Positions 1-41,143 of a stretch of 64,000 bases of DNA are shown in pieces. A model generated the notes under the pieces. It was not told the DNA's origin. It searched no databases and saw only the letters and a program-made list of their open reading frames with translations. Position 1 is the stretch's first letter. Every line of letters begins with the position of its first letter. Position numbers and translations under genes: made by a program. The DNA is from Oligoflexia bacterium (lineage in GTDB: Bacteria > Bdellovibrionota > UBA1018), in NCBI GenBank assembly GCA_031292385.1, contig JARLHE010000055.1:14477-78476 (forward strand), read 5' to 3'.

Positions 1-1
1 T

Positions 2-667
2 CAGCTTTATGACGATACTCCTTCGGGCGCTTCGGGGTACTCGATGTGTTACGCTCCCTCGCCGTCAACGAATTCGACGCCCGGTATTTTTGAATTGAAT
101 TACGATCAAACAAATAATGTGGCTAAGCAAAATATTTTGGCCGCGACCTCGACCGGTCTTGTCGGCGTGGGCGGCCAGACCAATCCTATGCACGCGTTGG
201 ATGTGAAGGGCGACATCAATTTAACCGGCAATTTTCTCATCAATAATACGATAGTCTGCAGCGGGACAGCTTGTAACGCGCAGCCGGCGTCTTCGGACGC
301 GCGCCTCAAAAAGGAAGTCGCGCCGCTCGAGCACGCCCTGAAGAAAAGCCTTTTGCTTCGAGGCGTGAGCTATTTCTGGAAGGACGAGAAGAAATTTTCT
401 CCCGGCCGTCAGATCGGTTTGATCGCTCAGGAGGTCGAGAAGATCTTTTCCGAGGTGGTGCGCACGGATTCGAAGACCGGGATGAAATCGATTTTCTACG
501 ATCGTCTGATCGCGCCTCTGGTCGAGGCTCTGAAGGAGCTTAAAGCGCGAGTGGTGGCCGATGATGAGGCCAAACGCAAAAAAATGTCCGATCTGAAGGC
601 GGAAGACGCCGAGATCGAGGCGCGTTTGGGCCGGCTTGAACAGCGGGCGGGAAAGGCCGGTCAATAG
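2..667 (+). CDS. Fibre-protein paralog, C-terminal part (5' end lies outside the window), ending in a peptidase-S74 intramolecular chaperone domain
   Basis: The frame is open from nt 2 (QLYDDTPSGASGYS precedes the listed Met at 44). It aligns with the equivalent region of the two downstream paralogs (LQLYD, NF.LN(Y/W)D, LDV.GDIN.TG..LIN). The C-terminus has SSDARLKKEV..L.GVSYFWKD..GLIAQEVEKIFSEVV followed by a coiled-coil tail, the endosialidase/tail-fibre chaperone signature. Confidence 0.85.
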   Translation, partial: QLYDDTPSGASGYSMCYAPSPSTNSTPGIFELNYDQTNNVAKQNILAATSTGLVGVGGQTNPMHALDVKGDINLTGNFLINNTIVCSGTACNAQPASSDARLKKEVAPLEHALKKSLLLRGVSYFWKDEKKFSPGRQIGLIAQEVEKIFSEVVRTDSKTGMKSIFYDRLIAPLVEALKELKARVVADDEAKRKKMSDLKAEDAEIEARLGRLEQRAGKAGQ

Positions 668-674
668 GGGCTAG

Positions 675-2606
675 ATGAAGACGAGAAAACGAAAGGCCGG
701 CGAGGCCGCCTTCACTTTGCTGGAAGTCATGGTCTCGCTCGCTCTTGTGGGAGTCGTCGCCTTATTCGTTACGTCTGTCGCGAAGATGACCGCGAAAGTG
801 CAATCCCAGGCCACGTTGGCCGCGACGGCCACTCAGATCCGAAACAATCTCGTGAATCTGATCAACAATTCGAGCGCTTGGCACAACACGATCAACGATC
901 AGGGCGATAACCCTTCGCTTTATTGTTTATCCACGACGACCGCGCCACTGCCTTCTCCCTCTCCTTCGCCGACGCCTTGTGCGGTCGGCGGGGGATCGGT
1001 AGTTAGCCCTGCCTATCAGATTATGGCGGTCAAGGACTCCTCTAGCGGGGGAGCCAACTATTATACCTATAATGGCGCGACCAGCGGCTATACTCAGTCC
1101 GGTGTGCCATGTAATAGTTTTTCCTCCTCCGGCAATGACGCTTGTCCCTTGCAATTTACGGTGAAATGGCAGCCGGTTTGTTATTCGGGGAGCTCTTGCC
1201 TTTATCCTCAGATTTTCGTTCAAATCACCGCGGCGTACAGTCCCGTCCTGAAAAACCGGATTGCTTTCAATCCCGACAACTACAGCGCCAGTTTTTATCA
1301 GGGAATCACGAATGGAATCGGCTGTTGGATCTGGGATCAAACCAATCAAAATTTGATGTATGAAAATTGCGCCACCCAAGTCGGCATCGGTACTTCCACT
1401 CCGATTTACGGCTTGGATGTCCGCGGGGCAAGTAATTCGGACGCGGTGGTCTCCCTGACCAACGACGGCGGAGCGAACTCCAACGGAACCGCTTTGAATG
1501 CGATCGCCTATTCTGATAATGCGGGGGCGTCCGCGGCGTTGAACTTCATCAGTGCGGCGGGGACACGCACCGCTCCGCAGCCGTTCCCCTCGCCCCAGAT
1601 TAACGGTCAGTTCGGCGCCTTTGGGCATGATGGCAACGGATTTGGTATCGGTGATCCGGAAGGGTCGCTATCGTTTGCGAGCGAAAGCGGTTTTACTCCC
1701 GGAAGCGGTCCGACGTCCGTGGGTTTTTGGACGAAGCCGCTCAGCAAGCTTGCTCAGGAAGTTGTCCATATCGCCTCTAATGGCTGGATTGGGACCGGGA
1801 CTCTGACGCCGCTCAACACTTTTCATGTCGATACCCCTTATCCAAACCCTGTTCCAAGTGCTTCTCCAAATCCTGCTCCGACGAGCGTGACGGCGCGGAT
1901 TTCTGCTCCTGTGAGCAGTCCAAGTAATCCTGCGGGTGCGAACTCCACGCTTCAGCTTTATGATCGAGATAATAATAACGGATTTGCCTTGGTGTTGAAC
2001 GGGCTACCTTCTGCTATCCCCGCGGGAAATTTTTCGCTGAATTGGGATGACAAGCCAGATCATCCCAAGTTGACAGTGATCACGGGCACTCCGGCCGGAT
2101 TCGTGGGGATCATGAACAGCAATCCGCAACATTCGCTCGACGTGGTTGGCGACATCAATACGACCGGAAACCTTCTGATCAACGGCAGCGTGGTTTGTAG
2201 CAGTACGAATCAGTGCAATACGGGATCGTCATCGGACGCCCGGCTGAAGAAGGATGTTCAGCCGCTTCAGAGCGCCTTGGAGAAGATTTCGTCGCTTCAG
2301 GGCGTGAGCTATTTCTGGAAGGACGCGAAGAAATTCTCTCCAGGGCGCCAGATCGGCTTCATCGCCCAGGAGGTTGAGAAGATCTTTCCCGAGGTGGTTC
2401 GCACGGACGTCAAAACCGGGATGAAGGCGATCGTTTACGATCACTTGATGGCTCCTTTGGTTGAAGCGTTCAAGGAGCTGAAGGCAAGCCTGGACGCCGA
2501 TCAATCGGAGGAGGACAAAGAAATCGACGAATTGAAAGCCCGGAATGCCGCAATCGAAGCTCGGTTGAATCAGCTCGAAAAACGATCGGGAAAGGCGGCG
2601 CTTTAG
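675..2606 (+). CDS. Prepilin-type N-terminal methylation-motif protein with a fibre-like body and C-terminal peptidase-S74 chaperone domain (643 aa)
   Basis: The N-terminus MKTRKRKAGEAAFTLLEVMVSLALVGVVALF is a class-III signal (FTLLE with Glu at +5 and a hydrophobic helix). A Cys-containing head follows (PAYQIM, GNDACPLQFTVKWQPVC). The body has a PSPSPSPTP linker and repeated GIGT..P...LDV motifs. The C-terminus has SSDARLKKDV..LQGVSYFWKD..IGFIAQEVEKIFPEVV. An AGGGG Shine-Dalgarno-like run precedes the ATG. Confidence 0.85.
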   Translation: MKTRKRKAGEAAFTLLEVMVSLALVGVVALFVTSVAKMTAKVQSQATLAATATQIRNNLVNLINNSSAWHNTINDQGDNPSLYCLSTTTAPLPSPSPSPTPCAVGGGSVVSPAYQIMAVKDSSSGGANYYTYNGATSGYTQSGVPCNSFSSSGNDACPLQFTVKWQPVCYSGSSCLYPQIFVQITAAYSPVLKNRIAFNPDNYSASFYQGITNGIGCWIWDQTNQNLMYENCATQVGIGTSTPIYGLDVRGASNSDAVVSLTNDGGANSNGTALNAIAYSDNAGASAALNFISAAGTRTAPQPFPSPQINGQFGAFGHDGNGFGIGDPEGSLSFASESGFTPGSGPTSVGFWTKPLSKLAQEVVHIASNGWIGTGTLTPLNTFHVDTPYPNPVPSASPNPAPTSVTARISAPVSSPSNPAGANSTLQLYDRDNNNGFALVLNGLPSAIPAGNFSLNWDDKPDHPKLTVITGTPAGFVGIMNSNPQHSLDVVGDINTTGNLLINGSVVCSSTNQCNTGSSSDARLKKDVQPLQSALEKISSLQGVSYFWKDAKKFSPGRQIGFIAQEVEKIFPEVVRTDVKTGMKAIVYDHLMAPLVEAFKELKASLDADQSEEDKEIDELKARNAAIEARLNQLEKRSGKAAL

Positions 2607-2607
2607 A

Positions 2608-4524
2608 ATGACTTCGTTACGTTCGAAGCGGTATAGGGGCTCGGCCGGGCTTACGTTGATTGAGGTCATGGTTGCCGTTGGCTTCGTGGGACTCGTGTCG
2701 TTGCTGATCGCGAATTTGAGTCGGATGGGGATGAAGGCCCAGACCCAATCCACGCTGACTTTGACGGCCTCGCAGATCAAGAACAATCTGGTTACCTTGG
2801 TCAATAATTCGACCGCTTGGTACAACACAGTCAACGCTTCCGGCAATACTTCGCTGGCCTGCGTGGCATCGGTAACGCCCAATCCGTCGTCTACTTCGTC
2901 CATTTCACCGGCCAACCCTGTTTCGTGCGTGGTCGGAAGCGGGACCACGGCTAACCCGGCTTATCAGATCATGACCCTTCTGGATCCCGCGGGTAACGTG
3001 GCCTACCAGTATAATGCTTCGTTCGGCTATACGCAGGCGGGCGCGCCTTGTAAGGAGTATTCGCCCAGCGGCAATGACGGCTGTCCTTTGCAATTCATCG
3101 TTAAATGGCAGCCTTTCTGCGTTTCGGGAACATCGTGCGTCAACCCGCAGGTTTATATTCAAATTACGGCCAATTACAGCCCGGCCACTAAGAGCAACCT
3201 GGTGTTTAGCCCGCAAAACTATAGTACGAGCTTTTACCGCGGGGTGAGCAGCAGCGGCGGCGGCAGCCTGGGCTGCTGGAACTGGAATTCCAGCACCTCG
3301 CAAATTTATGAAACCTGCGCGAGCAACGTCGGCATCGGGACGACGAACCCGAGCGCCACTCTTGACGTACACGCAACGAATACCCCGTCAGCGGTTGTAT
3401 CCGTGACTCAAGATGAGGGGGCAGCCTGGTCATTGATCTATGCCATAGCTTATGGTGCGAACGGCGGGAATGCCTTGAATTTTTATCGGTCGCGCGGCAC
3501 GTCTGCCGCGCCGCTGCCCCTTCAACAGGGGGATAACATCGGTCAAATCAATATGGCGGTTTACGACGGATCGGCCTTTAATTCCGGGCCGGTTTTTTCG
3601 GTGTCCGCGGATGGCCCTTTTTCGCCCGGAAACGAACCCACGGCGATCGATTTTTACACCAAGCCCGCGACGCTGAACGCTAGTTCTGTATCCCGGCTTC
3701 ATATCGATTCCGCCGGCAACGTCGGGATCGGAACGATCAGTCCGCAGGCGCAGTTTCATGTGGACTCGACGAACACTCCGGCGAGCCCTACGGCGACGGC
3801 ACGGGTCTCGGCCCCTGTTCTAGGCTATAACCAGAATGCGGCATTGCAGCTTTATGATAATTACAACGGAAAAAATGCCGGTTTTACCTTCCTTGATTCG
3901 GGAATGGTGATCGCCCCCGACCTGCCAGGAAATTTTCAATTAAACTACGATTCATCGAATAATAAAGGGGTTATGGCGCTTCTTGTTGGCTCCCCGAACG
4001 GTTTTCTCGCCGTCACCCGATCGATTAATCCCCCTGGGACGATGCCGATGACCCCGGCGTATCCGCTCGATGTGAACGGCGATATCAATGCCACCGGAAG
4101 TTTATTGCTGAACGGGGTTGCGGTCTGCAATAGCACCGGTTGCCTGCCCGCCGCGACGTCCTCGGACGTACGCCTGAAAAAGGAGATCGAGACGCTGAAA
4201 GGTTCTTTCGAGAAAATCCTCTCTCTGCAAGGCGTGAGCTTTTTTTGGAAGGACCCCAAGAGTTACTCCCCGGACCGTCAAATCGGCTTCATCGCCCAAG
4301 AAGCCGAGAAGACTTTTCCGGAGGTAGTGGAGACGGACCCGCACACCGGCCTGAAGTCGATGCATTATGAGCGCCTCGTCGCGCCGTTTGCCGAAGCGCT
4401 CAAAACTTTGTACGCGCGGTTTGAAGCGGGGAGCGCCGCTCGGGATAAAGAGCTTGCCGAGCTGAAAGCCAAAAATGCCGCGCTGAAAGCGCGTCTGGAA
4501 AAGCTCGAAAATCAGGTGAACTAA
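2608..4524 (+). CDS. Prepilin-type N-terminal methylation-motif protein with a fibre-like body and C-terminal peptidase-S74 chaperone domain (638 aa)
   Basis: The start lies 1 nt after the upstream stop. It has a canonical prepilin motif, GSAG/LTLIEVMVAVGFVGLVSLL. The head is conserved with the previous ORF (PAYQIM, GNDGCPLQFIVKWQPFC). The middle is divergent and carries VGIGT..P...LDV / IGTISPQAQFHVD motifs. The C-terminus has SSDVRLKKEI..LQGVSFFWKD..IGFIAQEAEKTFPEVV. Confidence 0.85.
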   Translation: MTSLRSKRYRGSAGLTLIEVMVAVGFVGLVSLLIANLSRMGMKAQTQSTLTLTASQIKNNLVTLVNNSTAWYNTVNASGNTSLACVASVTPNPSSTSSISPANPVSCVVGSGTTANPAYQIMTLLDPAGNVAYQYNASFGYTQAGAPCKEYSPSGNDGCPLQFIVKWQPFCVSGTSCVNPQVYIQITANYSPATKSNLVFSPQNYSTSFYRGVSSSGGGSLGCWNWNSSTSQIYETCASNVGIGTTNPSATLDVHATNTPSAVVSVTQDEGAAWSLIYAIAYGANGGNALNFYRSRGTSAAPLPLQQGDNIGQINMAVYDGSAFNSGPVFSVSADGPFSPGNEPTAIDFYTKPATLNASSVSRLHIDSAGNVGIGTISPQAQFHVDSTNTPASPTATARVSAPVLGYNQNAALQLYDNYNGKNAGFTFLDSGMVIAPDLPGNFQLNYDSSNNKGVMALLVGSPNGFLAVTRSINPPGTMPMTPAYPLDVNGDINATGSLLLNGVAVCNSTGCLPAATSSDVRLKKEIETLKGSFEKILSLQGVSFFWKDPKSYSPDRQIGFIAQEAEKTFPEVVETDPHTGLKSMHYERLVAPFAEALKTLYARFEAGSAARDKELAELKAKNAALKARLEKLENQVN

Positions 4525-4526
4525 GT

Positions 4527-7208
4527 TTATTGCCGGTCTTCCGCGGCGGCGACGGAGCTTTTCCACGCCGCAAGCGCGTTCAGCGCTTCGAGCGGAGTCA
4601 TGCGGTTGGGATCGAGCTCGCGCACTTGCTTGACCAGCTCTTCGAGGCGCTTCAAGCGTTCGAGCTGGGCGGCCGAGGTCTTTGTCGCAGCGGGTTTGGC
4701 GGCTGCGGGCTTTTCCGCGAAAAGCGAAAGCTGGGCCCGGTCGGGCGCGGCTTCGCTTGCGGCGAGGGCTTTGCTTTCGAGGTCCTCCAGAACGGCGCAA
4801 GCGCGGTCGATGACTTCGCTGGGGATGCCCGCGATGCGCGCGACATGAATGCCGAAGCTGTCGCTGGTGGGGCCATCGGCGAGTTTGTAGAGGAAGCGAA
4901 TTTCCGATTGCTCGCTGCGGGCGACGGCCATATGGGCGTTCGCCAGAAGCGGCAGGGAGTCCGAGAGCCGGGTGAGCTCGTGGTAATGGGTCGCGAAAAG
5001 CGTGCGCGCGCGAATGCGATTGCAGATCCACTCGAGCGTCGCCCAGGCGATGCTCATGCCGTCATAGGTGCTGGTGCCGCGCCCGATTTCGTCGAGGATG
5101 ATGAACGAGCGCTCGTCGGCGAAATGCAGGATATGGGCAAGTTCGCTCATTTCGACCATGAACGTGCTTTGGCCTCGCGCGATCGCATCGTGCGCGCCGA
5201 TGCGGGTGTATAACGACGAAACCGCGCCCCATTGCGCGTGGGTGGCGGGAACGGGCGCGCCCATCTGGCCCAAAATGACGATCAGCGCGTTTTGCCGCAT
5301 GACGGTCGATTTACCGCCCATGTTGGGGCCGGTGATGAGCAGGGTGAGGCGCGTGGAATCGGATAGGAAAAGATCGTTCGGCACGAAGCCGCTTTGTCCG
5401 CCGGCCTGGCGTTGGTCCACAAGGGGGTGCCGGCCCGCGCTGATATCGAGCGTAAGCGAGTCATCGATGACGGGAAAGCACCAGCCCGGCTCATCGGCCA
5501 GGCGCGAAAGCGCCAAGAGCGCATCCAGTTCGGCGATGCGTGCCGCCGTATCCATGATGGCCGTCGTTTTGGCCTGGATTTGGGTCAAAAGCCCGGAGAA
5601 AAGCTCTTGCTCCAGCGATTTTTGACGGGAGTTCGAGGTGAGGATTTCTTCTTCGAAATTTTTCAGCTCTTCCGTGAAAAAACGCTCGGTCCCGACCGTG
5701 GTTTGCTTGCGTTGATAATGGGCCGGCACGCTCTTGGCGTGCGCTTGGGTCACTTCGATGTAGTAGCCGAAAACGCGGTTGTAGCGGACTTTGAGCGAGC
5801 CGATGCCGGTTTGCGCGCGCTCGCGCGCTTCGAGATCGACGAGCCAGCGCTGGCCGTTCTCGGTAAGGTCGATTAGTCGGTCGAGATCGGCGGAGGTGCC
5901 GCGGTTAAAGATTCCGCCATCGCGCGCGGTCATGGGCGCGTCTTCCCTTTGGGTGCGGCAAATCTGCTCGCCCAAAGGCCCAAGCTCGCCGGCGGCTTTT
6001 TGAAAATCCGCGCACAGGGCTTGGAGCGGTTTGGATTCGAAGCCTCCGAGCATCGAGGCGATGCCGGGCAAAGCGCTGAGCGAGCGCCCGAGCTGGAGGG
6101 TGTCGCGCGGATTCGCGAGCTGAGTGCTGACGCGTCCTAAGATCCGCTCGATATCGTAGACTTCGGCTAAAACGGTTCCGAGGCGCTCGCGGATGGGGCC
6201 GCCCTTTTCGTGGATTTCGCGAACCGCTTGCTGGCGTTCGGCGATCTCCGCCGGTTTCGAGAGCGGGGAGAGTAGCCAGCGCTTGAGCTGCCTCGCTCCC
6301 AGCGACGAGCGCGCGCGCTGAATGAGTTGATAAAGACTTGGGGTTCCATCCGCCGACGGCAGAAGGTCCAGATGCCGCGCGGTCGTGGGACTGACCTGCA
6401 GGCTTCGGGGCTGGGTCAGCGGCGAAGGCAAGCGCAGATGCGCGAGCTTTTCCATCTGCTGGGAGCGCGTAGCGTAGCGAACCAGAAGCCCGAGCGCGAG
6501 CAGGGCTGCTTCGGTCGGAATGAAAGCGGACAATTCGGCCAGGCCGTAGTGGCGTTTGAGGATCTCTTCCGCTTGGGGAAGCGAAATGAAATTAGCCGGC
6601 AATTTTTCGGTCAGGAGATCGGGCCCGGCGAGATTCAGCTCGGCCGGAAGCGCTTGGCTTTCCAAGGTGATGAGATGCCGGATCGGAAAACGCGCGGATT
6701 CTTGCGCAAGTATTGCGGCCGGGGTGGGTTCCGAAACCAAGGCTTCGCCGGTTGAAGCGTCCAGGCAGGCTAAAACCCAGCGGTCATCTCCCGTTTGGGC
6801 GCCGGCATGGGTGAGCGTGGCTAAAAAGTGAGCTTCCGAGCCCTCGGCGTCGAATTGCACACCCGGAGTGAAAATCCGGGTGAGGTCGCGCCGAACGATG
6901 GCTTTGCCGGAAACGGAGGCAGGGTCTTCCATCTGCTCGCCGATGGCGACTTTCTTGCCCGCCTTCAGAAGCCGCTGAATATAGCTCTGCACGCTGTGGT
7001 GGGGCACTCCCGCCATGGGCATGGGGTTCGGCTTGTTGCGGTCGCGCGAGGTGAGGGTGATTTCAAGAAGCTTCGCGGCTTCGACGGCGTCATCGCCGAA
7101 GAGCTCGTAGAAGTCGCCCATGCGGAATAAGAGGAGGGCATCTCCGGCCTTCGCCTTGATATCCCAGTATTGCTTCATGAGAGGAGTCTGCTCGGCCACT
7201 TGTGACAT
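4527..7208 (-). CDS. mutS: DNA mismatch repair protein MutS
   Basis: 893 aa. The N-terminus TPLMKQYWDIKAKAGDALLLFRMGDFYELFGDDA, the Walker A GPNMGGKST and the motif STFMVEMSE..DEIGRGTSTYDG are all classic MutS. Confidence 0.97.
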   Translation of the reverse strand: MSQVAEQTPLMKQYWDIKAKAGDALLLFRMGDFYELFGDDAVEAAKLLEITLTSRDRNKPNPMPMAGVPHHSVQSYIQRLLKAGKKVAIGEQMEDPASVSGKAIVRRDLTRIFTPGVQFDAEGSEAHFLATLTHAGAQTGDDRWVLACLDASTGEALVSEPTPAAILAQESARFPIRHLITLESQALPAELNLAGPDLLTEKLPANFISLPQAEEILKRHYGLAELSAFIPTEAALLALGLLVRYATRSQQMEKLAHLRLPSPLTQPRSLQVSPTTARHLDLLPSADGTPSLYQLIQRARSSLGARQLKRWLLSPLSKPAEIAERQQAVREIHEKGGPIRERLGTVLAEVYDIERILGRVSTQLANPRDTLQLGRSLSALPGIASMLGGFESKPLQALCADFQKAAGELGPLGEQICRTQREDAPMTARDGGIFNRGTSADLDRLIDLTENGQRWLVDLEARERAQTGIGSLKVRYNRVFGYYIEVTQAHAKSVPAHYQRKQTTVGTERFFTEELKNFEEEILTSNSRQKSLEQELFSGLLTQIQAKTTAIMDTAARIAELDALLALSRLADEPGWCFPVIDDSLTLDISAGRHPLVDQRQAGGQSGFVPNDLFLSDSTRLTLLITGPNMGGKSTVMRQNALIVILGQMGAPVPATHAQWGAVSSLYTRIGAHDAIARGQSTFMVEMSELAHILHFADERSFIILDEIGRGTSTYDGMSIAWATLEWICNRIRARTLFATHYHELTRLSDSLPLLANAHMAVARSEQSEIRFLYKLADGPTSDSFGIHVARIAGIPSEVIDRACAVLEDLESKALAASEAAPDRAQLSLFAEKPAAAKPAATKTSAAQLERLKRLEELVKQVRELDPNRMTPLEALNALAAWKSSVAAAEDRQ

Positions 7209-7279: not shown

Positions 7280-8176
7280 TTAAGCCGCTTCTTTTGTCTG
7301 TTCTGCCTGGTGATTGCCGTGGACTAGGGCGCTCATTCGTGACTGAACCTGCACATATTCGGGCAATAGGCCCTTGCCAGTGGTAAGCAGGCGGGTCGCC
7401 CATTTTTTGAAGTCTTCCCAATCCGACCCGGAGGGGTCGCGGCTTGGGCAGCCCGTGGCTCTGAGCTCGCGAATCAGTTCGACGAGCATCTGCCGGGTGG
7501 CCGAAGTCAGCTCGACAAATTGCAGGCCGTGTCCGTATCCCGTTTCGGATTGTCCTCGGTGAAAAACCACTTTGGCGCGAATTGAGAAAATATGCCGGCC
7601 GTTCGGGCTGAAGCGGAGCCGGATAATCCGATTGTCTTCGATCTTAACCGGAAGCAACGCGAAGACGCCGCCCACGCTGATATCGTGGATCTGGCAAACA
7701 TCGCTGGATTCATCCCGGCTTTCGCCGTCCGCGATCTCAAAGCGGGCTCCGAACTTCACGAGGTAGCGGGTCGCGGTCTCCCACCAGCGCACCCGTTTGT
7801 CGAAGAACGGCAGGCGTACGGAAGGCAGCAGAAAATACGTGATCAAGGCGATATGCGAGAGGTAGAGGCTCGCCGCGAAGGTGAGGCTGATGCGGCTGTC
7901 CCGGGCGGCCTGGAAATTCTGCGCCAGGATCAAACTCGCGCAAACGACGAAAACCGCGTAGCTCCATTTTTTCATGGCGTAAGCTGAAACGCCCATGACG
8001 ACCGGGAGACCCAACATGCAGATCGCGCCGATCCAGTGGCCGCCCGCGAAAAGCGCGTGAAGGTAAGCGGAAACCGTCAGGCTGCTGAGCTTCGCGCTCA
8101 GGACGATATTCAACAGTGGTTCAATAAAAACCTGAAAGACTGAGAAGATGAAGATCGGCCACGGTCTGCGGTACAT
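7280..8176 (-). CDS. Multi-pass membrane protein with C-terminal PilZ (c-di-GMP binding) domain
   Basis: About 5 hydrophobic helices lie in the first 130 aa. The C-terminal half has RVRWWETATRY ... CQIHDISVGGVFAL, which resembles the RxxxR / D.S.GG PilZ motifs. Confidence 0.7.
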   Translation of the reverse strand: MYRRPWPIFIFSVFQVFIEPLLNIVLSAKLSSLTVSAYLHALFAGGHWIGAICMLGLPVVMGVSAYAMKKWSYAVFVVCASLILAQNFQAARDSRISLTFAASLYLSHIALITYFLLPSVRLPFFDKRVRWWETATRYLVKFGARFEIADGESRDESSDVCQIHDISVGGVFALLPVKIEDNRIIRLRFSPNGRHIFSIRAKVVFHRGQSETGYGHGLQFVELTSATRQMLVELIRELRATGCPSRDPSGSDWEDFKKWATRLLTTGKGLLPEYVQVQSRMSALVHGNHQAEQTKEAA

Positions 8177-8247: not shown

Positions 8248-9483
8248 TCAGGCCTTTTTGCCTTTAATGATGTTTTTCTTCGCGAATCCCGGACGGGCGG
8301 TGTCCGCGGGGACGAAGTGCTTGGCCTTGGCGCCGACGGCAACAGGGTTGTCTGACCGGTCTTTGGGCAGCTCGAGCACCGTGACGTTGCCGAAGCCCTT
8401 TCCGTCGTCGGCTTCGGGTTTCCCGTCCGTGTCGATCAGCGGCAAAACCCGATGGGGCTGGCAAGGGTCGAAATCCTCGGGAAGCTCCTTGCGGCTGATG
8501 CGGTGGATCTTGCCGGCGCGCGTGTTTTCCTCGAAAGCTCGGAAGATTTTCGGGTCGAGCTTTTTGCCTTCGGTTTTTTGCATGATCGCCAGCGCGTCCA
8601 GCGGGGACAGGGGTTCGTGGTAGGAGCGCTTGGTGGTCACGGCGTCGAAAAAATCGGCGATCGCGGTGATGCGCGACAGGAAATGGATGTCCTCTCCCGC
8701 AAGGCCCTGCGGATAGCCCGTGCCGTTGAAGTTTTCGTGATGCTCGAAGATCACGCGGGCGAGCAGCTCGGTGTCGATCGATTGCGGCAGGTGGAGGCGG
8801 CATTCGCGCAGCAGTTCGTGGCCGTAGCCCGGGTGTCTTTTGATTTCCGAGAACTCCTGCTCGTCGAGCTTTTCGGTCTTGTTCAGGATCTGCGTGGAGA
8901 TCTTGATTTTGCCCAGATCGTGCAGGAGCCCGCTCATTCCCGCTAGCATGATCATCGGGCGGGGGGCGTCGGGGCGCATGAGCCGGAACAGCAGGATGCT
9001 GTACATGCAGACGTTGACGGAATGATCGAAGGTGTAAAAATCGTGAAACGAAAGGCTCGCGATCAGTTCCCTGAGCTTGTCGATATTGTAGTCCTCGAGA
9101 ACGTCGATCATGCCTTCGACGACGTCGCGGCATTCGGTCAGGGTTTTGCCCATGGTCTCGGGGGTTTGTTCGTGCCCGAAGAGGTTTTTGAGATGGTGAA
9201 TGGCCGAATCCTTCAGGATTTCCGTTTTCCGCTCGGGCGTCGCGCCGGTGGCCGAGACCAGTGACTTGAGAAATAGCGAACGTTGGGTTTCGACCACGTA
9301 AATGCGGTGATACTTCGTCTCAAAGTGCGCGAGATCGCCGGAGGCGATTATCTCTCCGCGGCGATGGATGCGGACAAACCTTTCGCGTCCCTCGATTGAC
9401 GAGGAGTTGATGTAGAGGTCGTACGGCAAGGCCACTTGGGTCGTGACCAGGCTGAACGAAATTGAGAAAAAGCTTGTCGACAT
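8248..9483 (-). CDS. HD-GYP domain c-di-GMP phosphodiesterase family protein
   Basis: Contains HSVNVCMY, LLHDLGKIKI, and HHENFNGTGYPQGL with the GYP motif. 411 aa. Confidence 0.85.
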   Translation of the reverse strand: MSTSFFSISFSLVTTQVALPYDLYINSSSIEGRERFVRIHRRGEIIASGDLAHFETKYHRIYVVETQRSLFLKSLVSATGATPERKTEILKDSAIHHLKNLFGHEQTPETMGKTLTECRDVVEGMIDVLEDYNIDKLRELIASLSFHDFYTFDHSVNVCMYSILLFRLMRPDAPRPMIMLAGMSGLLHDLGKIKISTQILNKTEKLDEQEFSEIKRHPGYGHELLRECRLHLPQSIDTELLARVIFEHHENFNGTGYPQGLAGEDIHFLSRITAIADFFDAVTTKRSYHEPLSPLDALAIMQKTEGKKLDPKIFRAFEENTRAGKIHRISRKELPEDFDPCQPHRVLPLIDTDGKPEADDGKGFGNVTVLELPKDRSDNPVAVGAKAKHFVPADTARPGFAKKNIIKGKKA

Positions 9484-11058: not shown

Positions 11059-12553
11059 CGCCGATGCGGTGTACTTTGACCATATTGGTGGTGCCCCGGC
11101 GAAGGGTGGGGATGCCGGCGGTCACGACGACCAGATCTTCGACCTCGGCCCAGCCGCGGGTTTGCAGGACCTTTTCGACCATCGCGAAAAGATCGTCGGT
11201 GCCGACGATCTTCTGGATCAGCTCGCCTTGCACGCCCCAGACGAAGGCAAGCTTGCGGACGCTGGCTTCGTTGTCCATGATCGCGACGATGGGGGTGGCC
11301 GGGCGGTGCTTGGCCAGGGTGCGTGCCGCGGTTCCAGAGTGAGTGATGCAGGCGATCGCGACCGCGCCCACTTGGCGGGCGATTTGCGCGGCGCTGTGCT
11401 CGATCGCATCGACGACCGAGCCGGGCATGAGTTTCGTTTCGCGCCCGACGCTGAACGGGTCGGCATAGTGCGTGGCATGTTCGGCCCGGAATTTTCCGCC
11501 CTGGTTGGCGCGTTCGGCTTCCAGCACGATGCGGGCCATCGTTTGCACGGTCTCGATGGGGTAGAGGCCAGAGGCGGTTTCGCCCGAAAGCATCACGGCG
11601 TCGGTTCCGTCGAAAACGGCGTTCGCCACATCGCTCGCCTCGGCGCGGGTGGGCGTGGGCGTGTTGATCATGGATTCAAGCATTTGCGTGGCTGTGATGA
11701 CGGGAACGCCCAGCTCGTTGCACGAGTGGATGAGCTGCTTTTGCACGACGGGAACGCGCTCGGCGCCGATTTCGACCGCCATGTCCCCGCGGGCGACGAG
11801 CAGGCCGTCGCAGACTTCGATGATGGAATCCATGTATTCGACCGCTTCCTCGCGTTCGATCTTGGCGACGCAAAGCGGTCTTTCGTTGGTTTGTTTATGG
11901 ATGCGGCGGCGCAGGTCCTCGATGTCTTGAACCGTGCGCACGAACGACAAGGCGACCGCGTCGACGCCCATGGAGAGGCCGAACTTCAGGTCTTCCAGAT
12001 CCTTATCGGTGAGGCAGGGAATCGAAAGCGGCGTGCCCGGAAGATTCATGCCCTTATGGTCGGTGAGCTTGCCTCCCACTTCGACTTCCACCACCATCTC
12101 CGGCGGGGAGACCTGGCTGGCGCGGGTTTGGATCTTGCCGTCATCGAAAAGAATGCGCGCGCCCACCTTGGCGTCCGACGAGACGGCGAGCGCGATTTCA
12201 GCTGAAATGGGGATCGCGATTCTTCCATGGGTCGAGGTCCGGGGAGTCGTGCCTTCGGGGTAGAGGACGACGACGTCTCCGGCTTTGAGGTCGATGCCGC
12301 CCTTGGCGAGTTTTCCCGCTCGCAGCTTGGGTCCCTGCAAATCCTGCATGATCGCGACCGGTTTCTTCGCTTTGCGAGACGCTTCGCGGATGTTTTGAAT
12401 CAGGCCCCGGTGGAAGTCGTGGGTGCCGTGGCTGAAATTGAGCCGGGCAACGTCCATGCCGGCTTCGATGAGCTGGGCGATCCGCTCGGCGGACGAGCTT
12501 GACGGGCCTAGCGTACAGACGATTTTAACTTTTCTTCTGACGGAGGAGGGCAT
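11030..12553 (-). CDS. pyk: Pyruvate kinase
   Basis: Contains RKVKIVCTLGPSS, ARLNFSHG, MVARGDMAVE and TQMLESM. 507 aa including a C-terminal extension. The start may be a few codons downstream of the listed Met. Confidence 0.95.
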   Translation of the reverse strand: MPSSVRRKVKIVCTLGPSSSSAERIAQLIEAGMDVARLNFSHGTHDFHRGLIQNIREASRKAKKPVAIMQDLQGPKLRAGKLAKGGIDLKAGDVVVLYPEGTTPRTSTHGRIAIPISAEIALAVSSDAKVGARILFDDGKIQTRASQVSPPEMVVEVEVGGKLTDHKGMNLPGTPLSIPCLTDKDLEDLKFGLSMGVDAVALSFVRTVQDIEDLRRRIHKQTNERPLCVAKIEREEAVEYMDSIIEVCDGLLVARGDMAVEIGAERVPVVQKQLIHSCNELGVPVITATQMLESMINTPTPTRAEASDVANAVFDGTDAVMLSGETASGLYPIETVQTMARIVLEAERANQGGKFRAEHATHYADPFSVGRETKLMPGSVVDAIEHSAAQIARQVGAVAIACITHSGTAARTLAKHRPATPIVAIMDNEASVRKLAFVWGVQGELIQKIVGTDDLFAMVEKVLQTRGWAEVEDLVVVTAGIPTLRRGTTNMVKVHRIGVIAERALGR

Positions 12554-14264
12554 CGGAGCGTTTCATCTTTTCTATTTGGTCCTGATAATTCTCTGAAATC
12601 ATACGCTCTCGTTCTTTACTTTGGAACTCTAATTGCTGAATTCGCTGTTCGTAGCCGCGGGCCTGGTCTTCCATGTTTTGCTTGTTGCGTCGTTCGATGT
12701 CGCGCGTCGCGGTCCCGAATTGGGCTTTCATCTCGTTGATCTGGTCATCGTAGGCGGTTTTCTGCTCGGCCATCTGCTTTTGATGGTCGCGGATGAGCTC
12801 GTTTTCCCGCTGCGCGAAGCCGCGCTGGGCCATCTTCGAGTCGAATTCCGCCTTTTGGGTGACTTCGGAGATCCTTCTCTGCGCGTCGGCGCGAGTGTCC
12901 GAGAAGAGCTGATCATAGTCCTGGCGCTGCTTTTCAAGCGCATGGGCATGGTCCTTCGTCATGGTGGTGGCCTGTCGGTTGGAGTCGGCGGCGGCCCTGC
13001 GTTGGGTCAGCTCCCGATCCTGTTCCAGGTTGTTGACATGATCCATGAAGGAGGTGCGCTCCTGCTGGTTCTCGAGCTCATGCTGCGTGTGGAGATCGGT
13101 GATCCGCTTCTCTTTTTCGTATTGGATCTCGGCCAGCTTCCGGTTGTAGCTTTCGAGGGTTTCATCGTGCTTGGACTGCATACGGTCGATGTTGGCTTGA
13201 TGCCGCTTCTCGTATTCGGTCGTGAGATTCTTGCGCAAAGCATCGGCGTAGGCAGGGGAAACCTGGCTTCCGTCCGTCGAGGTGGTTTGCATTTTGATTT
13301 GGTTTTGCAAGCGGTCCGTCTGGGCCGAGTTTCTCGTCTCTTGATCGGCCATCCGTTGGCGATAGGCGTTGGCCTGGCTGTCCAGCGACTTTTGCATTTC
13401 CTCGTTCGAGTTTTTCGCCATGCGCTCGATCTGTTGTTCGTGATTTTTATTGGTCTCATCGCTCAGCTGCTTTTGCTGCGCGATGAGACGGTTGAAATTC
13501 TCGCGGGAGAGCTCGTCCGCCGAGTGAAGGGTATTATTGGATTGCCGGATGACGTTCGCGGTCTCGACATCCTTGTCATGCAAGGCTTGCCTTTCGTGAT
13601 CGCGGTTGAGCCGGTTATCGCTTTCGTTGTCCCGCTTGAGCTTGGCGAGCTGGTCTTCGTACGAGGTTTGAAGGAGCGTTTGCTTGGCCCGACTGTCGGC
13701 TTCCGTTTCCCGGCGGACATCCTGGGTGGCTTGGCCTTTTTCTTTTTGATAGGTCTTTTCCGCAGCCAGCAGGTCTTTGATATCCGAGCGCAGCTCCCGG
13801 GTCTCGTTTTCGCGGCTGCTTCTTTCGGCCGCGATGGCGGCGGCGGCTTTTCGGCCTGAATCGTCTTTGCGGGGTTCGAACTTCTGTTTTTCGAGGCGAT
13901 GCTCGTAATTCTGCTGCAGGTCATGCATGGCCTGATCGGAATTTTTTTGGGCCTCGGCGACTTCCGCGGCCGCCTTTCCAAAGCGATCGTAGGTGCGGGC
14001 TTTCTCCCGTTCGACTTCGGTGCGCGCGTTTTCCCGTTCGCGCCGGGTTTCGTCGCTGAAATTTTGACGGATCTCGTTCGCGGCCTCGTTCGACTTGCGC
14101 TCCTGTTCATTCAAGCCGCGCCGGTAACCGGCGGCTTGCGATTCGGATTGCTCGTTGAGGCGCTCCCGGGCGCGCTTGTTTTCGGCGCGCATCTCGTCCT
14201 CGAGATCGTTGACTTTCCGCTGGTAGTACTGGTAGCCCCCGTCCGTGGAGGAGATGTTCGACAT
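12525..14264 (-). CDS. Coiled-coil-rich protein (bacterial intermediate-filament-like / Ccrp-like), cytoplasmic
   Basis: 579 aa with no signal peptide. Composition is extremely rich in E/Q/R/K/D/N with heptad-like character throughout. The opposite-strand 408-aa ORF is L/V/G-rich, as expected for an antisense shadow. Confidence 0.7.
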   Translation of the reverse strand: MSNISSTDGGYQYYQRKVNDLEDEMRAENKRARERLNEQSESQAAGYRRGLNEQERKSNEAANEIRQNFSDETRRERENARTEVEREKARTYDRFGKAAAEVAEAQKNSDQAMHDLQQNYEHRLEKQKFEPRKDDSGRKAAAAIAAERSSRENETRELRSDIKDLLAAEKTYQKEKGQATQDVRRETEADSRAKQTLLQTSYEDQLAKLKRDNESDNRLNRDHERQALHDKDVETANVIRQSNNTLHSADELSRENFNRLIAQQKQLSDETNKNHEQQIERMAKNSNEEMQKSLDSQANAYRQRMADQETRNSAQTDRLQNQIKMQTTSTDGSQVSPAYADALRKNLTTEYEKRHQANIDRMQSKHDETLESYNRKLAEIQYEKEKRITDLHTQHELENQQERTSFMDHVNNLEQDRELTQRRAAADSNRQATTMTKDHAHALEKQRQDYDQLFSDTRADAQRRISEVTQKAEFDSKMAQRGFAQRENELIRDHQKQMAEQKTAYDDQINEMKAQFGTATRDIERRNKQNMEDQARGYEQRIQQLEFQSKERERMISENYQDQIEKMKRSDALLRQKKS

Positions 14265-17610: not shown

Positions 17611-18963
17611 TTAATAGGTAACCGGATCACCGTTCTTATCGGTGAATTTTCCATCCGAGGTTCCGGCACCGTTGACGATGGGGCCGTCGTAATAGATCCC
17701 GTGGGTCGGGTCATAGATCCCTTGATAGTAGCCCTGCGTGATCAGGCCATTGGAAAATAGCCCGCTTTCGATCGTTCCGTCTTGGAAGACTACCTTGCCT
17801 GGGCCATTGGGTTGGCCCTGGAAGCTTTTGCCCACGTACGTAGAGACGCCTTCCACGTTGATTTGATTTTCGATCGGGGTTCCGGGCTTTCGCGTTCGGA
17901 TCGAGTCGATCTCAGTCCTGCCATCAGGGGTGGTGGGTAAAATTTTGAGAAGATTAGCCGCTGCGATCCAGGCGGTCCCGCCCTTGCTTGAGGGTGGCCA
18001 GCCCGTGCCCCAGGAGTTTCTGAGCTCGACCTGGCAGACTCCGTTGACCATCTTCATCCCGACCACATCGACCGCATGAGGCCCGCAGGTGGCGATCAAA
18101 GCGGGAGGAACGCTGTCAGTGCTGCCGATGCCGGGCATTTGGCTGAGTTGATCGCCGCAGAGCCCGATAATCGAAGGCTCCTTGGCTTTGAGGTTGGCTT
18201 GGAGCGTTTCCATGAAGCGATCGCCCGTTTTGGCATTATCCTGCAAGATGTCGTAGGGCGGGGAGATCGAGACGCGCTTCGCGCTCTTCTTGGGTTGGGT
18301 CACCAGCGAGTATTTTGCATCGGCGGTGTTTAAGAACGCGGTTTCGTTATTCGAAGAATGCAGGAGCTGCAAGAGGGACGTAAAGTATTTTTCTAGAAGC
18401 TGCGTATCCGGATCCTGCGGCCGGCAGGCCAGTTGGGACGCGGCATCGTACGGTTTTTCGGTCTCGTAATATTTTGAGAATTTGCTCATGATGCCGGGGT
18501 TTTCGAAATAAGTCTGTTCGAATGGATAGTCCTGGTCACGGTAGACTTCCCCCGAGGCTTGCACGCCTTCAAGGAGTTCGAGCGGGCTGTCGCCGTTATT
18601 CATGTCCGGGCTTTTTCCGCGATCCGCGGAGGGTTTGCCCGTGTTCAATGAATTGATGTCCATCGCCGAAAGCCGCGTTTGATAATGATCATCGGGATGA
18701 GCGATATGATTTTGGTATTCGAGGACCGCCTTCGCGGCGAAAGTCGCGCACCAAGGCGCGTTTTCTTGCTCGTCGATGGGGGGCATGTCGGGCTCGAGAT
18801 CGACGGAAACGCCGCCGCAATCATGCACGTACTTCGTGGTCATCAGCGCGATCGGTGGCGGTGTGTATGGATCGTCGTCGGCCATCGCCGTGAGAGTCGG
18901 TGGCGCCAAAAGACCGGATGCCAAGAGCAGGATCGTGCTGAGGAGGCGAGCTTGAGGTTTCAC
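17611..18963 (-). CDS. Secreted papain-like (clan CA, C1-like) cysteine peptidase with C-terminal MORN-like repeats
   Basis: The probable start is GTG at 18963, which overlaps the upstream stop as GTGA, giving VKPQARLLSTILLLASGLLAPPTLTAMA. Catalytic-type motifs are APWCATFAAKA (Cys) and GPHAVDVVGM..ELRNSWGTGW (His, NSWG). The tail YVGKSFQGQPNGPGKVVFQDGTIESGLFSNG is MORN-like. Confidence 0.75.
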   Translation of the reverse strand: MKPQARLLSTILLLASGLLAPPTLTAMADDDPYTPPPIALMTTKYVHDCGGVSVDLEPDMPPIDEQENAPWCATFAAKAVLEYQNHIAHPDDHYQTRLSAMDINSLNTGKPSADRGKSPDMNNGDSPLELLEGVQASGEVYRDQDYPFEQTYFENPGIMSKFSKYYETEKPYDAASQLACRPQDPDTQLLEKYFTSLLQLLHSSNNETAFLNTADAKYSLVTQPKKSAKRVSISPPYDILQDNAKTGDRFMETLQANLKAKEPSIIGLCGDQLSQMPGIGSTDSVPPALIATCGPHAVDVVGMKMVNGVCQVELRNSWGTGWPPSSKGGTAWIAAANLLKILPTTPDGRTEIDSIRTRKPGTPIENQINVEGVSTYVGKSFQGQPNGPGKVVFQDGTIESGLFSNGLITQGYYQGIYDPTHGIYYDGPIVNGAGTSDGKFTDKNGDPVTY

Positions 18964-19376
18964 GGTTTGCTCTTCTTTATTTTTTCGAAATGGGCCTGGT
19001 AGAGCGCGTGGGCGTCGATCAAAGTGAGATCCGAAAATACGCAAAACTGCGTGTCGTCGGTCCGGTTCTCTTCGTGCATGAAAAGCTGCGATCCCTGCAG
19101 AAGCTCGCAATAGGCGCCGGCGTAGTTTCCGGGCGTGGCCTTCCGGATTTCAGCGATCCTGGATTTGCCCTGGTAAATTTTCAGTGCCTCGCAGCTTTGG
19201 AGGCGTTGCAGGCAGACGTCATTGACCCGCAGGCCGTCTTTCGTTTTACCGACGAGAGCCGTCACGTTTTTGCCGCCGAATAGATACGAATAGCGGGTCA
19301 TTTCCGCGTCCGCGCGGCCTGGGAGTGGGAAGAGCGAGAAGAAAGAAGCGAGCAGGAAGGCAAGTCCGCGGAGCAT
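18960..19376 (-). CDS. Small secreted Cys-containing protein, possibly DUF333-like
   Basis: Signal MLRGLAFLLASFFSLFPLPGRADA. 138 aa. The motif GNYAGAYCELLQGS...CVFSD resembles DUF333. It is translationally coupled to the downstream peptidase gene. Confidence 0.6.
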   Translation of the reverse strand: MLRGLAFLLASFFSLFPLPGRADAEMTRYSYLFGGKNVTALVGKTKDGLRVNDVCLQRLQSCEALKIYQGKSRIAEIRKATPGNYAGAYCELLQGSQLFMHEENRTDDTQFCVFSDLTLIDAHALYQAHFEKIKKSKP

Positions 19377-28542: not shown

Positions 28543-28546
28543 AAAC

Positions 28547-41069: not shown

Positions 41070-41143
41070 TGGGGAATCGTCCAATGGTAGGACTCCAGAC
41101 TCTGACTCTGGCTATCTAGGTTCGAATCCTAGTTCCCCAGCCA
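41070..41143 (+). tRNA. tRNA-Gln (anticodon CUG), 74 nt with encoded CCA
   Basis: Manual cloverleaf fold: acceptor TGGGGAA/TTCCCCA (U1-A72, typical of bacterial tRNA-Gln), D stem GTCC/GGAC, anticodon stem CCAGA/TCTGG with loop CTCTGAC, T arm CTAGG-TTCGAAT-CCTAG, discriminator G and CCA. Confidence 0.92.

Follow-up and report, generated by a model that had tools for sequence, protein, structure and literature searches.

Pilin-like heads joined to S74-chaperoned fibres: a tandem array of three putative modular minor pilins in an uncultured Bdellovibrionota bacterium

Introduction

Three adjacent genes at the edge of a 64-kb stretch of bacterial DNA (the window, meaning the whole stretch analysed) encode proteins that begin like type IV pilins and end like phage tail fibres, raising the question of how such a fusion could be built and what it could be used for. 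The first-pass annotation, made from the sequence alone, considered the combination architecturally paradoxical, did not recognise it as a described family, and pointed to the fibres that Bdellovibrio uses for prey recognition. Here, we characterise the domains, relatives and genomic setting of the three proteins, and we consider it somewhat probable that they belong to a type IV filament system as modular minor (pseudo)pilins, bearing S74-trimerised fibres as adhesin tips.

Results

The array consists of three consecutive same-strand paralogs, A, B and C (Table 1), packed with intergenic gaps of 7 nt and 1 nt. As first described, A is cut by the window edge, leaving its C-terminal 221 residues; Logan contig L001 (40.7 kb) carries the same locus with A complete, and there the array comprises exactly three genes flanked by a PAS histidine kinase and mutS. 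With full lengths of 638 (A), 643 (B) and 638 (C) residues, the proteins were overstated as "giant". Full-length pairwise identity is 43–48% and varies by region: 44–53% in the head, 60–78% in the S74 core, and 34–42% in the shaft, the most divergent region, which also carries several indels of 3–13 residues. NusA assigns the window to an uncultured member of the Bdellovibrionota, a host new for the fusion of an N_methyl leader with S74, and the flanking genes encode a histidine kinase, MutS, PilZ and HD proteins and pyruvate kinase.

Table 1. Positions of the array features in the window (nt)
Feature	Position	Strand	Description	Basis
Paralog A, 3' part	2–667	+	221 codons and stop; fibre end and S74 module; full gene at L001:7311–9227	
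A Ser515 (full-protein numbering)	293–295	+	Ser of the Ser/Lys dyad	
Paralog B	675–2606	+	643 aa: leader, alpha1 helix, Cys-rich head, fibre, S74 chaperone	ORF, Pfam, AF2
B predicted class III (prepilin-type) leader	675–710	+	MKTRKRKAGEAA	N_methyl and TIGR02532 matches, register with the family
B pilin-like head	711–1370	+	Residues 13–232	AF2; 546 homologous clusters
B predicted mature Phe1	711–713	+		
B Glu+5	723–725	+		
B conserved head block	1131–1181	+	GNDACPLQFTVKWQPVC	
B fibre shaft	1371–2231	+	Residues 233–519, G/N/S/T/A/P-rich	Motifs; PHROG tail-fibre families
B capping-loop-like motif	1380–1421	+	VGIGTSTPIYGLDV	
B capping-loop-like motif	1788–1829	+	IGTGTLTPLNTFHV	
B capping-loop-like motif	2103–2144	+	VGIMNSNPQHSLDV	
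B S74 intramolecular chaperone	2232–2606	+	From Ser520, then C-terminal long helix	Pfam match 520–576 vs model positions 1–58
Paralog C	2608–4524	+	638 aa, architecture as B	ORF, S74 match
C predicted leader	2608–2649	+	MTSLRSKRYRGSAG before LTLIEVMV	Alignment
C head	ends ~3318	+		
C conserved head block	3070–3120	+	GNDGCPLQFIVKWQPFC	Pattern match
C fibre	3319–4161	+		
C S74	from 4162–4164	+	From Ser519	

The N-termini of A, B and C align in register, and each of the three proteins carries a predicted class III signal peptide. The leader of A, read from L001, is MPRLSLKPGKQKKLGQGG followed by VTLVDVLV (...GQGG/VTLVD), with Asp at +5 instead of Glu. That of B ends ...GEAA/FTLLE (AA/FTLLEVMV), with Ala rather than Gly at −1 and the predicted prepilin-peptidase cut after Ala12, and that of C (...GSAG/LTLIE; AG/LTLIEVMV) is canonical. 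The annotation had called both a prepilin and a Peptidase_S74 domain; HMM searches bore out the second in all three proteins and the first in B, which passes N_methyl PF07963 (24.1 bits, cutoff 21.2) and TIGR02532 (20.2 bits, cutoff 16.3). C scores 14.4 bits, below the Pfam cutoff of 21.2, and no N_methyl match is on record for A in a contig look-up.

For an independent test of the leader, a head profile was built from residues 40–240 only, with the leader excluded, and applied at E ≤ 1e-3. It recovers 546 protein clusters, and these relatives carry textbook G/F(S/T)L(I/V)E leaders: aligned across the family, 102 of 105 sequences have Gly at −1 and the other 3 have Ala, +1 is F, M, L or I, and Glu occupies +5 in 84 of 113. 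Leader length has a median of 11 residues, and the net charge of the leader is positive in 91/105. In type IV pilins Glu5 is required for filament assembly and not for cleavage or anchoring, and its conservation across the family therefore argues for filament assembly.

Structural prediction of B gave a pilin-like alpha1 helix of about 50 residues (approximately residues 15–64) followed by a beta-sheet globular part, with AF2 pLDDT above 90 across most of residues 11–210 (head-only model, pLDDT 88.8 and pTM 0.82). Eight cysteines are invariant among the three heads (84, 102, 146, 157, 169, 175, 217 and 232 in B). Foldseek comparison of the head with solved pilins returned nothing significant (best PDB E 1.4; PilB 7ba2, E 8.5; XcpW 3nje, E 9.7), and a PDB sequence search with the head found no match. 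Among 132 head-family members, 44 match Pfam N_methyl, none matches a Tad-type Pfam model, and 22 carry S74; other fusion partners are Laminin_G_3, H_lectin, collagen, fibrinogen_C and Gly-rich modules, and some heads stand alone. The Cys-rich head defines a large pilin-carrier family of 546 clusters, which outside the leader has neither a Pfam model nor a known structural counterpart and is new here.

The C-terminus is a genuine S74 intramolecular chaperone that carries the Ser/Lys dyad. All three proteins lie far above the Peptidase_S74 (PF13884) cutoff of 22, at 75.5, 56.4 and 63.8 bits, with E values of 4e-21 for B, 3.8e-15 for C and 1.8e-17 for A (residues 98–154 of its window fragment). 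The S-D-x-R-x-K dyad occurs as SSDARLKK in A (Ser515) and B (Ser520) and as SSDVRLKK in C (Ser519), and the fragment predicted to be released from B is 123 residues long. The module is modelled at pLDDT of approximately 80–97, and its fold matches the MyRF ICA (7dc3, E 4.9e-5, TM(target) 0.62) and phage S16 gp37 (6f45, E 2.7e-4), the match to K1F (3gw6, E 0.07–0.4) being non-significant.

Between head and chaperone, each protein carries two or three (V/I)G(I/T)GT..P...(L/F)(D/H)V motifs, and PHROG tail-fibre families match B over residues 222–631. The B shaft has low pLDDT when modelled as a monomer, as expected for an obligate trimer. The N-termini, Cys-rich head, fibre motifs and SSD(A/V)RLKK site that the annotation quoted were all confirmed in the sequences, and the HMMs, leaderless profile, AF2 and Foldseek agree with its division into prepilin leader, Cys-rich head, beta-fibre and S74 chaperone.

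Head-family genes elsewhere often lie in three-gene arrays (L017, L021, L024, L033, L038 and L042), among which the first, second and third genes of L024 pair with those of L042. Such position-specific orthology is a mark of heteromeric complexes, as in GspI-J-K and KilL-M-N (PMC12075869). The window trio is organised differently: A, B and C are more closely related to one another than to anything else in the family, each looks like the long "position 3" subunit, and they therefore do not make up a differentiated L/M/N-type set. As judged from these relationships, the trio arose by triplication of the long modular subunit within this lineage, again new here. Other S74-bearing members (P0037, P0055, P0058 and P0189) are single genes, indicating that one gene suffices and making a homotrimer plausible.

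Discussion

We favour, as somewhat better supported than not, a reading in which A, B and C serve a type IV filament system of their Bdellovibrionota host as modular minor (pseudo)pilins. The proteins would be inserted in the inner membrane and cut after Gly/Ala(−1) by a PilD-type prepilin peptidase. Three chains would be gathered in the periplasm by their C-terminal S74 domains, which would template a trimeric beta-helical shaft, with self-cleavage at Ser515/520/519 freeing about 120 residues. The three alpha1-N helices of the trimer could then pack into a bundle able to nucleate or cap a three-start type IV filament, as in CofB and TcpB, and the fibre would be pushed out through a secretin on the filament tip. 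There the fibre may mediate adhesion, with prey or surface glycans as its most plausible targets, in the manner of the Bdellovibrio MAT (mosaic adhesive trimeric) fibres. Because head and chaperone are kept while the shaft has diverged, the simplest form of this reading is three alternative homotrimeric tips with differing binding specificities.

The filament system is assumed rather than seen, since no gene for a prepilin peptidase, major pilin, secretin or assembly ATPase occurs in the window or near the family members inspected. We count against the filament-tip reading this orphan locus, the unmatched head fold, Ala−1 in B, Asp+5 in A, and the A and C leaders under the N_methyl cutoff. Several of these features, namely the distance from pilus genes, the head without a structural match to solved pilins and the leaders of all three proteins, would also fit display without a pilus, in which the prepilin-like N-terminus is an inner-membrane anchor or caps a short T2SS-type pseudopilus and the fibre is periplasmic, envelope-bound or released. 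To our knowledge, many bacteria carry N_methyl proteins never shown in a filament, including large families in the Planctomycetota and Verrucomicrobiota with no demonstrated filament role. We nevertheless rate such display as unlikely, if the strongest of the competing accounts: Glu+5 is conserved across the head family, the alpha1 helix has a pilin-like length and character, and adhesion-type cargo (lectins, collagen, fibrinogen-C and S74 fibres) fits an extracellular role. In Myxococcus Kil, moreover, tip cassettes are normally scattered and orphan (PMC12075869).

A second alternative keeps the pilus and combines one chain each of A, B and C in one mixed fibre whose pilin base is a heterotrimer, which would be an S74-fibre counterpart of the minor-pilin tip cassettes with three genes. 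The position-specific arrays elsewhere in the family lend it some weight, as do the tight packing, near-equal lengths and similar S74 cores of the window genes. It is rather improbable given that the three genes are most closely related to one another and share a resemblance to position 3, that S74-bearing members elsewhere occur singly, and that the shaft indels would be awkward for an in-register mixed beta-helix; the characterised S74 proteins known to us are, in addition, homotrimers.

That the three are ordinary MAT fibres, exported by Sec and anchored by a MAT N-terminal domain, with a leader that merely resembles a prepilin's, would suit the shared phylum, the common S74 C-terminus and the similar capping-loop motif. 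We think this very improbable, because the leader, 50-residue helix and Cys-rich head set the proteins apart, the head's relatives have textbook leaders, and in a full-length homolog search only the protein itself covered its head region. An origin as prophage, tailocin or phage-remnant tail-fibre genes is scarcely credible despite strong PHROG tail-fibre matches over the C-terminal 130–400 residues and an S74 module typical of phage fibres, as the flanks are housekeeping genes with no phage genes among them, the head motif has no match in 2.9 M viral contigs and its fold none among viral structures, and a prepilin leader would have no role in a virion.

Returning to the filament-tip reading, we offer a broader and distinctly more tentative version. 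The head may mark out a class of type IVa/T2SS-type minor-pilin tip cassettes that has so far gone unrecognised: orphan sets of three genes at most, whose members have orthologs by position and carry exchangeable adhesion modules. In the Bdellovibrionota the carrier would have captured a phage-derived, S74-chaperoned MAT-like fibre that trimerises and cleaves itself, primes a type IV pilus and forms its tip, the window holding either three interchangeable tips or one heterotrimeric tip. If the combination of tip cassette and MAT-like fibre is right, prey recognition would be physically coupled to the retractile pilus used for invasion. More generally, a pilin-fused fibre in a relative of Bdellovibrio offers a concrete, testable way to couple recognition to a retractile filament.

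Comparison with known systems

The architecture as such is catalogued. Raynaud et al. 2021 (PNAS) list IPR012902-IPR030392 in 29 proteins, as the sixth commonest modular-pilin architecture, with 7 further proteins carrying additional YadA-like repeats (PMC8179133). Protein B fits it, both Pfam equivalents being above cutoff, and relatives already appear in NCBI under the names [quoted passage not shown] or "tail fiber domain-containing protein"; the combination, which the annotation did not recognise as a described family, is therefore a described one. Modular pilins share with our proteins a prepilin methylation motif and S74 in one polypeptide, a functional module grafted onto a pilin, and such module-bearing pilins are expected at the pilus tip (PMC8179133). 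The N_methyl-S74 entry there is a listing, read as "peptidase activity", with no structure, organism focus or function, and the Cys-rich head family, three-gene cassettes and triple S74 array are absent from it (PMC8179133). Our literature search found no functional study of N_methyl-S74 proteins. The present reading recasts S74 in this architecture as a trimerisation chaperone for an adhesive fibre rather than as "peptidase" cargo.

The link to Bdellovibrio drawn in the annotation proved apt, given the NusA placement and the match of fibre and S74 to the S74 subgroup of the B. bacteriovorus MAT fibres, such as Bd3182 (Caulton et al. 2024, PMC10769870). Both occur in Bdellovibrionota hosts, and both have a trimeric beta-helix (here predicted) with V-G-x-x-x-x-P-x-x-x-L capping loops, a C-terminal S74 with SDxxxK that cleaves itself (here likewise predicted), and several paralogs with variable binding regions (putative in our proteins) (PMC10769870). 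The motif here is one residue longer than the MAT consensus V-G-G/N-pi-x-x-P-x-x-x-L, and our proteins are shorter, at ~640 residues against 922 for Bd3182 (PMC10769870). MAT fibres have a Sec signal peptide followed at once by a conserved beta-rich N-terminal domain of ~130 residues (PMC10769870), in place of the prepilin leader, long helix and Cys-rich head found here, a distinction drawn from the published description of MAT fibres. Phage S74 proteins (the K1F endosialidase IMC 3GW6, S16 gp37 6F45 and T5 pb1) and the eukaryotic MyRF ICA (7DC3) share the motif, Pfam family and fold of the C-terminal module; they belong to virions or, in the case of MyRF, to a transcription factor, and lack a prepilin head.

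Nor is a pilin joined to an S74 trimer paradoxical, because the minor pilins CofB (ETEC CFA/III) and TcpB (V. cholerae TCP) form homotrimers at type IVb pilus tips and start assembly (PMC8179133), heterotrimers being the norm for minor-pilin tips (PMC8179133, PMC12075869). Like our proteins, CofB and TcpB consist of a pilin domain followed by C-terminal domains, which makes pilin plus obligate trimer a workable design. They differ in being encoded in type IVb operons, as opposed to an orphan locus, and in having beta-repeat and beta-sandwich domains with no S74, self-cleavage or phage-fibre shaft. The head has no sequence or fold match to them in the PDB, and the suggested relation is one of functional analogy only.

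In organisation, the head-family cassettes parallel the Kil tips of Myxococcus, likewise a predator, whose minor pilins (KilL/M/N; TadE/F/G-like), paralogous and rich in disulfides, are encoded in scattered cassettes of three genes, two for small subunits and one for a large modular one, and provide interchangeable tips on a bundle of three alpha1-N helices (PMC12075869). Kil tips belong to Tad (type IVc) systems, whereas the head family has the G/F(S/T)LxE leader of PilD/T4a/T2SS-type systems, and in the window all three subunits are of the long S74 kind, unlike the two-plus-one Kil set. The recurring three-gene cassettes carry the idea of an interchangeable pilus tip beyond Tad pili and into PilD-type systems. 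Each of the ingredients, namely modular pilins, trimeric tip pilins and S74 fibres, was already established, and the proteins described here are in that sense not categorically new; what this locus adds is the Bdellovibrionota host, the head carrier family, the cassettes with position-specific orthology, and the trio as a triplication.

The array and its locus

The three consecutive same-strand genes that open the window, hereafter A, B and C, form a tandem array of paralogs (table). A is cut by the window edge, and we read its full length of 638 aa from L001, a 40.7-kb metagenome (Logan) contig with the same locus, where the array consists of exactly three genes with a PAS-HisKA kinase upstream and mutS convergent with it. 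Aligned end to end, the proteins are 43–48% identical in pairs and share 8 invariant Cys within the first 240 residues; the three-paralog array and all motifs quoted in the first-pass annotation were recovered from the ORF listing, L001 and the alignment. Conservation is uneven along the chain, with identities of 44–53% in the head (the Cys-rich, pilin-like part that follows the prepilin leader), 34–42% with indels in the shaft (the beta-fibre) and 60–78% in the core of the C-terminal S74 intramolecular chaperone. The anchor and the chaperone are thus retained while the shaft diversifies.

The stop of C (ending at 4524) and that of the convergent mutS (ending at 4527) lie 2 nt apart, within 4522–4529, too close for a terminator to fit between the genes. 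Promoter and terminator scans of the array locus remained at background level.

Features of the array and of the surrounding window (window positions)
Feature	Position	Strand	Remarks
A	2-667	+	ORF listing; 5' part beyond window edge
B	675-2606	+	643 aa; ORF listing
C	2608-4524	+	638 aa; ORF listing
579-aa protein	12525-14264	-	extremely charged, Q/E/R/K-rich, coiled-coil-like; no Pfam match
tRNA-Gln(ctg)	41070-41143		GC falls from ~0.58 to ~0.48 beyond (42000-64000)
DUF4423 protein	46610-47425		low-GC segment
968-aa ORF	50068-52974		no Pfam match; one of several such ORFs in low-GC segment
VirB4/TraG-like ATPase	57466-59967		low-GC segment
TrbI/VirB10-like protein	62657-63619		low-GC segment

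The head defines a class III signal-peptide family

The prepilin leader proposed in the first-pass annotation was upheld by profile models for B only, which scored 24.1 bits with Pfam N_methyl (cutoff 21.2) and 20.2 bits with TIGR02532 (cutoff 16.3), but not for A or C, the latter reaching 14.4 bits with N_methyl. The site in A reads G/VTLVD (the slash marking the cleavage point), with Asp at +5, and B has Ala at −1.

For a leader test we used a profile of residues 40–240 (alignment A2), which excludes the leader and the hydrophobic segment, in an exhaustive HMMER search of 1.84 billion representative proteins. This returned 546 matches with E≤1e-3, of which 132 reached E≤1e-10, and most alignments started at about residue 40–50. 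A word-index protein search with a two-sequence head alignment gave zero matches, missing even the protein of the window itself, a blank that reflects a limit of the index rather than true absence given the 546 proteins found exhaustively. In an alignment of the 132 matches, with no motif imposed, the −1 position is Gly in 102 of 105 members and Ala in 3, +1 is F, M, L or I, and +5 is Glu in 84 of 113; median leader length is 11 residues, and 91 of 105 leaders carry a net positive charge. Pfam N_methyl matches 44 of the 132. The recurrence of this pattern in homologs found without the leader, together with the N_methyl matches, shows the head family to be a genuine family of class III signal-peptide proteins, with A, B and C as slightly degenerate members. 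Two relatives carry NCBI/JGI names.

An S74 chaperone, a fibre shaft and a head with no significant structural match

The S74 chaperone proposed for the C-terminus is confirmed in all three proteins by Pfam Peptidase_S74 (63.8 bits in A, 75.5 in B and 56.4 in C, against a cutoff of 22). Its first residue is the Ser of S-S-D-(A/V)-R-L-K-K (Ser515 in A, Ser520 in B and Ser519 in C), and this motif supplies the Ser/Lys dyad. PHROG tail-fibre families match the C-terminal 130–400 residues, and the shaft contains 2–3 VGIGTxxPxxxL(D/H)V loops that resemble the capping loops of MAT fibres, the mosaic adhesive trimeric fibres of Bdellovibrio. Scaling from one of these, Bd3182, a protein of 922 aa with a fibre of ~550 Å (PMC10769870), we estimate that the fibre would be roughly 20–25 nm long.

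An AlphaFold2 model of full-length B, built on the family alignment, has pLDDT values of ~80–97 over residues 520–643 and <50 over shaft residues 233–518, the latter as expected where folding requires trimerisation. Foldseek matches to the full model were confined to the S74 module, with the MyRF ICA (7dc3) at E 4.9e-5 and the K1F IMC (3gw6) at a non-significant E 0.07–0.4. Over most of residues 11–210 pLDDT is >90, with a helix (15–64), short helices and then a beta-sheet, and a head-only model (residues 36–232) reached pLDDT 88.8 and pTM 0.82. A Foldseek search of the PDB with the head-only model returned nothing significant (best E 1.4), the pilins PilB (7ba2) and XcpW (3nje) reaching only E 8.5–9.7; the head had no match among viral fold models, and its sequence profile found no relative among PDB chains. 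A helix-then-sheet model without a significant PDB match suggests that the head has a pilin-like topology and a globular part that is structurally new. It could not be assigned to PilV, PilW, PilX, GspH, GspI, GspJ, GspK or another solved minor pilin, none of which gave a significant fold or profile match; for PilV, the TIGR02523 matches were weak (E 1e-4 and 1e-3), far below the cutoff, and covered only the helix.

A carrier of varied modules, often in three-gene cassettes

An S74 module ends 22 of 132–150 head-family members (local HMM; Pfam). Other cargo comprises Laminin_G_3, H_lectin, collagen repeats, fibrinogen_C and Gly-rich modules, and some members are pilin-only proteins of 180–300 aa. 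One head with varied C-terminal modules corresponds to what Raynaud et al. 2021 call a "modular pilin"; they read the S74 module as a peptidase, and their catalogue ranks the N_methyl–S74 architecture (IPR012902–IPR030392) sixth in frequency, with 29 proteins, and holds 7 further N_methyl–S74 proteins with YadA-like repeats (PMC8179133). The first-pass annotation did not recognise a described family here, but that catalogue shows the architecture to be known. Our literature search found no functional study of any N_methyl–S74 protein. The best match to the S74 region, a 777-aa protein of a Bacteriovoracia MAG (P0002), has the canonical leader MKRDQGG/FSLLEVMV yet is absent from the best 150 head-profile matches, which suggests that, in Bdellovibrionota, prepilin-led S74 fibres may have arisen on more than one pilin head.

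A DNA pattern of the head motif, GGNRRYGAYNNNTGYCCNNTN(16)TGGNNNSCNNNNTGY (51 nt), recovers both window genes with no chance match. It had 0 matches in 2.9 million viral contigs and 28 in metagenome contigs, 18 of them true head genes. In these metagenome loci head genes are often tandem, as triplets (L017, L021, L024, L033, L038 and L042) or as pairs cut by contig ends (L018, L022, L031 and L034), and a common cassette layout is two short head genes and one long. Best matches between loci are position-specific (L024_1/2/3 with L042_1/2/3; L017_3 with L021_3), as would be expected if different subunits formed a conserved complex like GspI-J-K or KilL-M-N, and this suggests that the cassettes encode minor-pilin tip complexes whose heteromeric make-up is conserved. 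The genes beside the metagenome cassettes include no pilus genes, and pilus machinery beside head-family members was found in none of seven loci inspected; a single PilT/T2SSE-type ATPase was seen, 5 kb away from the S74-pilin P0058.

Within the head, A, B and C are each other's best matches (41–52% identity), and their next resemblance is to the long position-3 subunit; S74-bearing members elsewhere are single genes. These relationships identify the window trio as a lineage-specific triplication of a modular subunit.

Directly downstream of two cassettes are beta-propeller proteins (L021:409-2814 and L024:4590-5879), two of them DUF1513 proteins and one PQQ_2/BamB-like. PilY1-type tip adhesins have a beta-propeller at their end; the placement beside the L021 and L024 cassettes may be coincidence. 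A multi-PAS hybrid histidine kinase adjoins S74-pilin genes in two unrelated contigs (L001:5258-7225, and L043, the context of P0037). We do not read this as conserved synteny or a regulatory link, as the L001 and P0037 kinases share only 27% identity over generic domains.

Host and genomic setting

NusA of the window shares 83–89% identity with proteins from MAGs that carry the label Oligoflexia, Bdellovibrionia, Bdellovibrionales or Bdellovibrionota. The window is a stretch of housekeeping chromosome, with genes for MutS, PilZ and HD proteins, pyruvate kinase, HflX, TruB, IF-2, NusA, GluRS, MetRS and a DsbA-like protein; besides the array's own leaders, we found no further prepilin leader, pilus machinery or phage genes in its 64 kb. 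Housekeeping flanks, the blank search of viral contigs and the lack of a viral fold match led us to reject a phage origin.

Just past mutS from the array lie genes for a PilZ-domain protein (7280-8176) and an HD-domain protein (8248-9483), both on the minus strand, and a weak PilZ protein (L014:5963-6535) is encoded ~4 kb upstream of P0058. Bdellovibrionota are rich in PilZ proteins, and these neighbours may mark a c-di-GMP link or else be there by chance. The charged 579-aa ORF accounts for a strong AT skew of −0.376 at 12–14 kb. Further sizeable ORFs of the housekeeping part had no Pfam match at the thresholds used (17611-19110, 20896-22131, 25422-27116, 28163-29371 and 35349-36467), and the low-GC segment has probably entered at tRNA-Gln as an integrative conjugative element.

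A proposed trimeric pilus tip and its relation to known systems

We propose a model in which all steps after translation are ones that we infer. A, B and C would be inserted in the membrane and their leader cut off by a PilD-type peptidase; the shaft would trimerise in the periplasm, templated by S74, and each chain would then self-cleave after Ser515, Ser520 or Ser519 (A, B and C, respectively), releasing ~120 residues. The three alpha1-N helices would seed or cap a type IV filament, much as trimers of CofB and TcpB do, and the fibre, extruded on the pilus tip, would work as an adhesin. Rival readings are that the three proteins form an A:B:C heterotrimer, or that they are anchored or displayed on a pseudopilus, no extended pilus being involved. 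Simple membership of the MAT fibres is rejected: these have the fibre and S74 part in common with A, B and C, but their defining N-terminus is missing here.

For a pilus-tip trimer there is precedent. The first-pass annotation had called the joining of a pilin to an obligate trimer architecturally paradoxical, a difficulty dissolved by CofB and TcpB, which are trimers at the filament seed or cap (PMC8179133). We propose by analogy that A, B and C work like these, and like the Kil tips of Myxococcus, minor-pilin tip complexes whose KilL-M-N cassettes are scattered, disulfide-rich and interchangeable predation tips (PMC12075869); the window proteins have no homology to either. A, B and C belong to the S74 family and show the modular-pilin architecture already catalogued. 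To these known systems our analysis adds the Bdellovibrionota setting, the carrier head family with its cassettes, the triple S74 array and a reading of S74 as a putative tip-trimerisation device.
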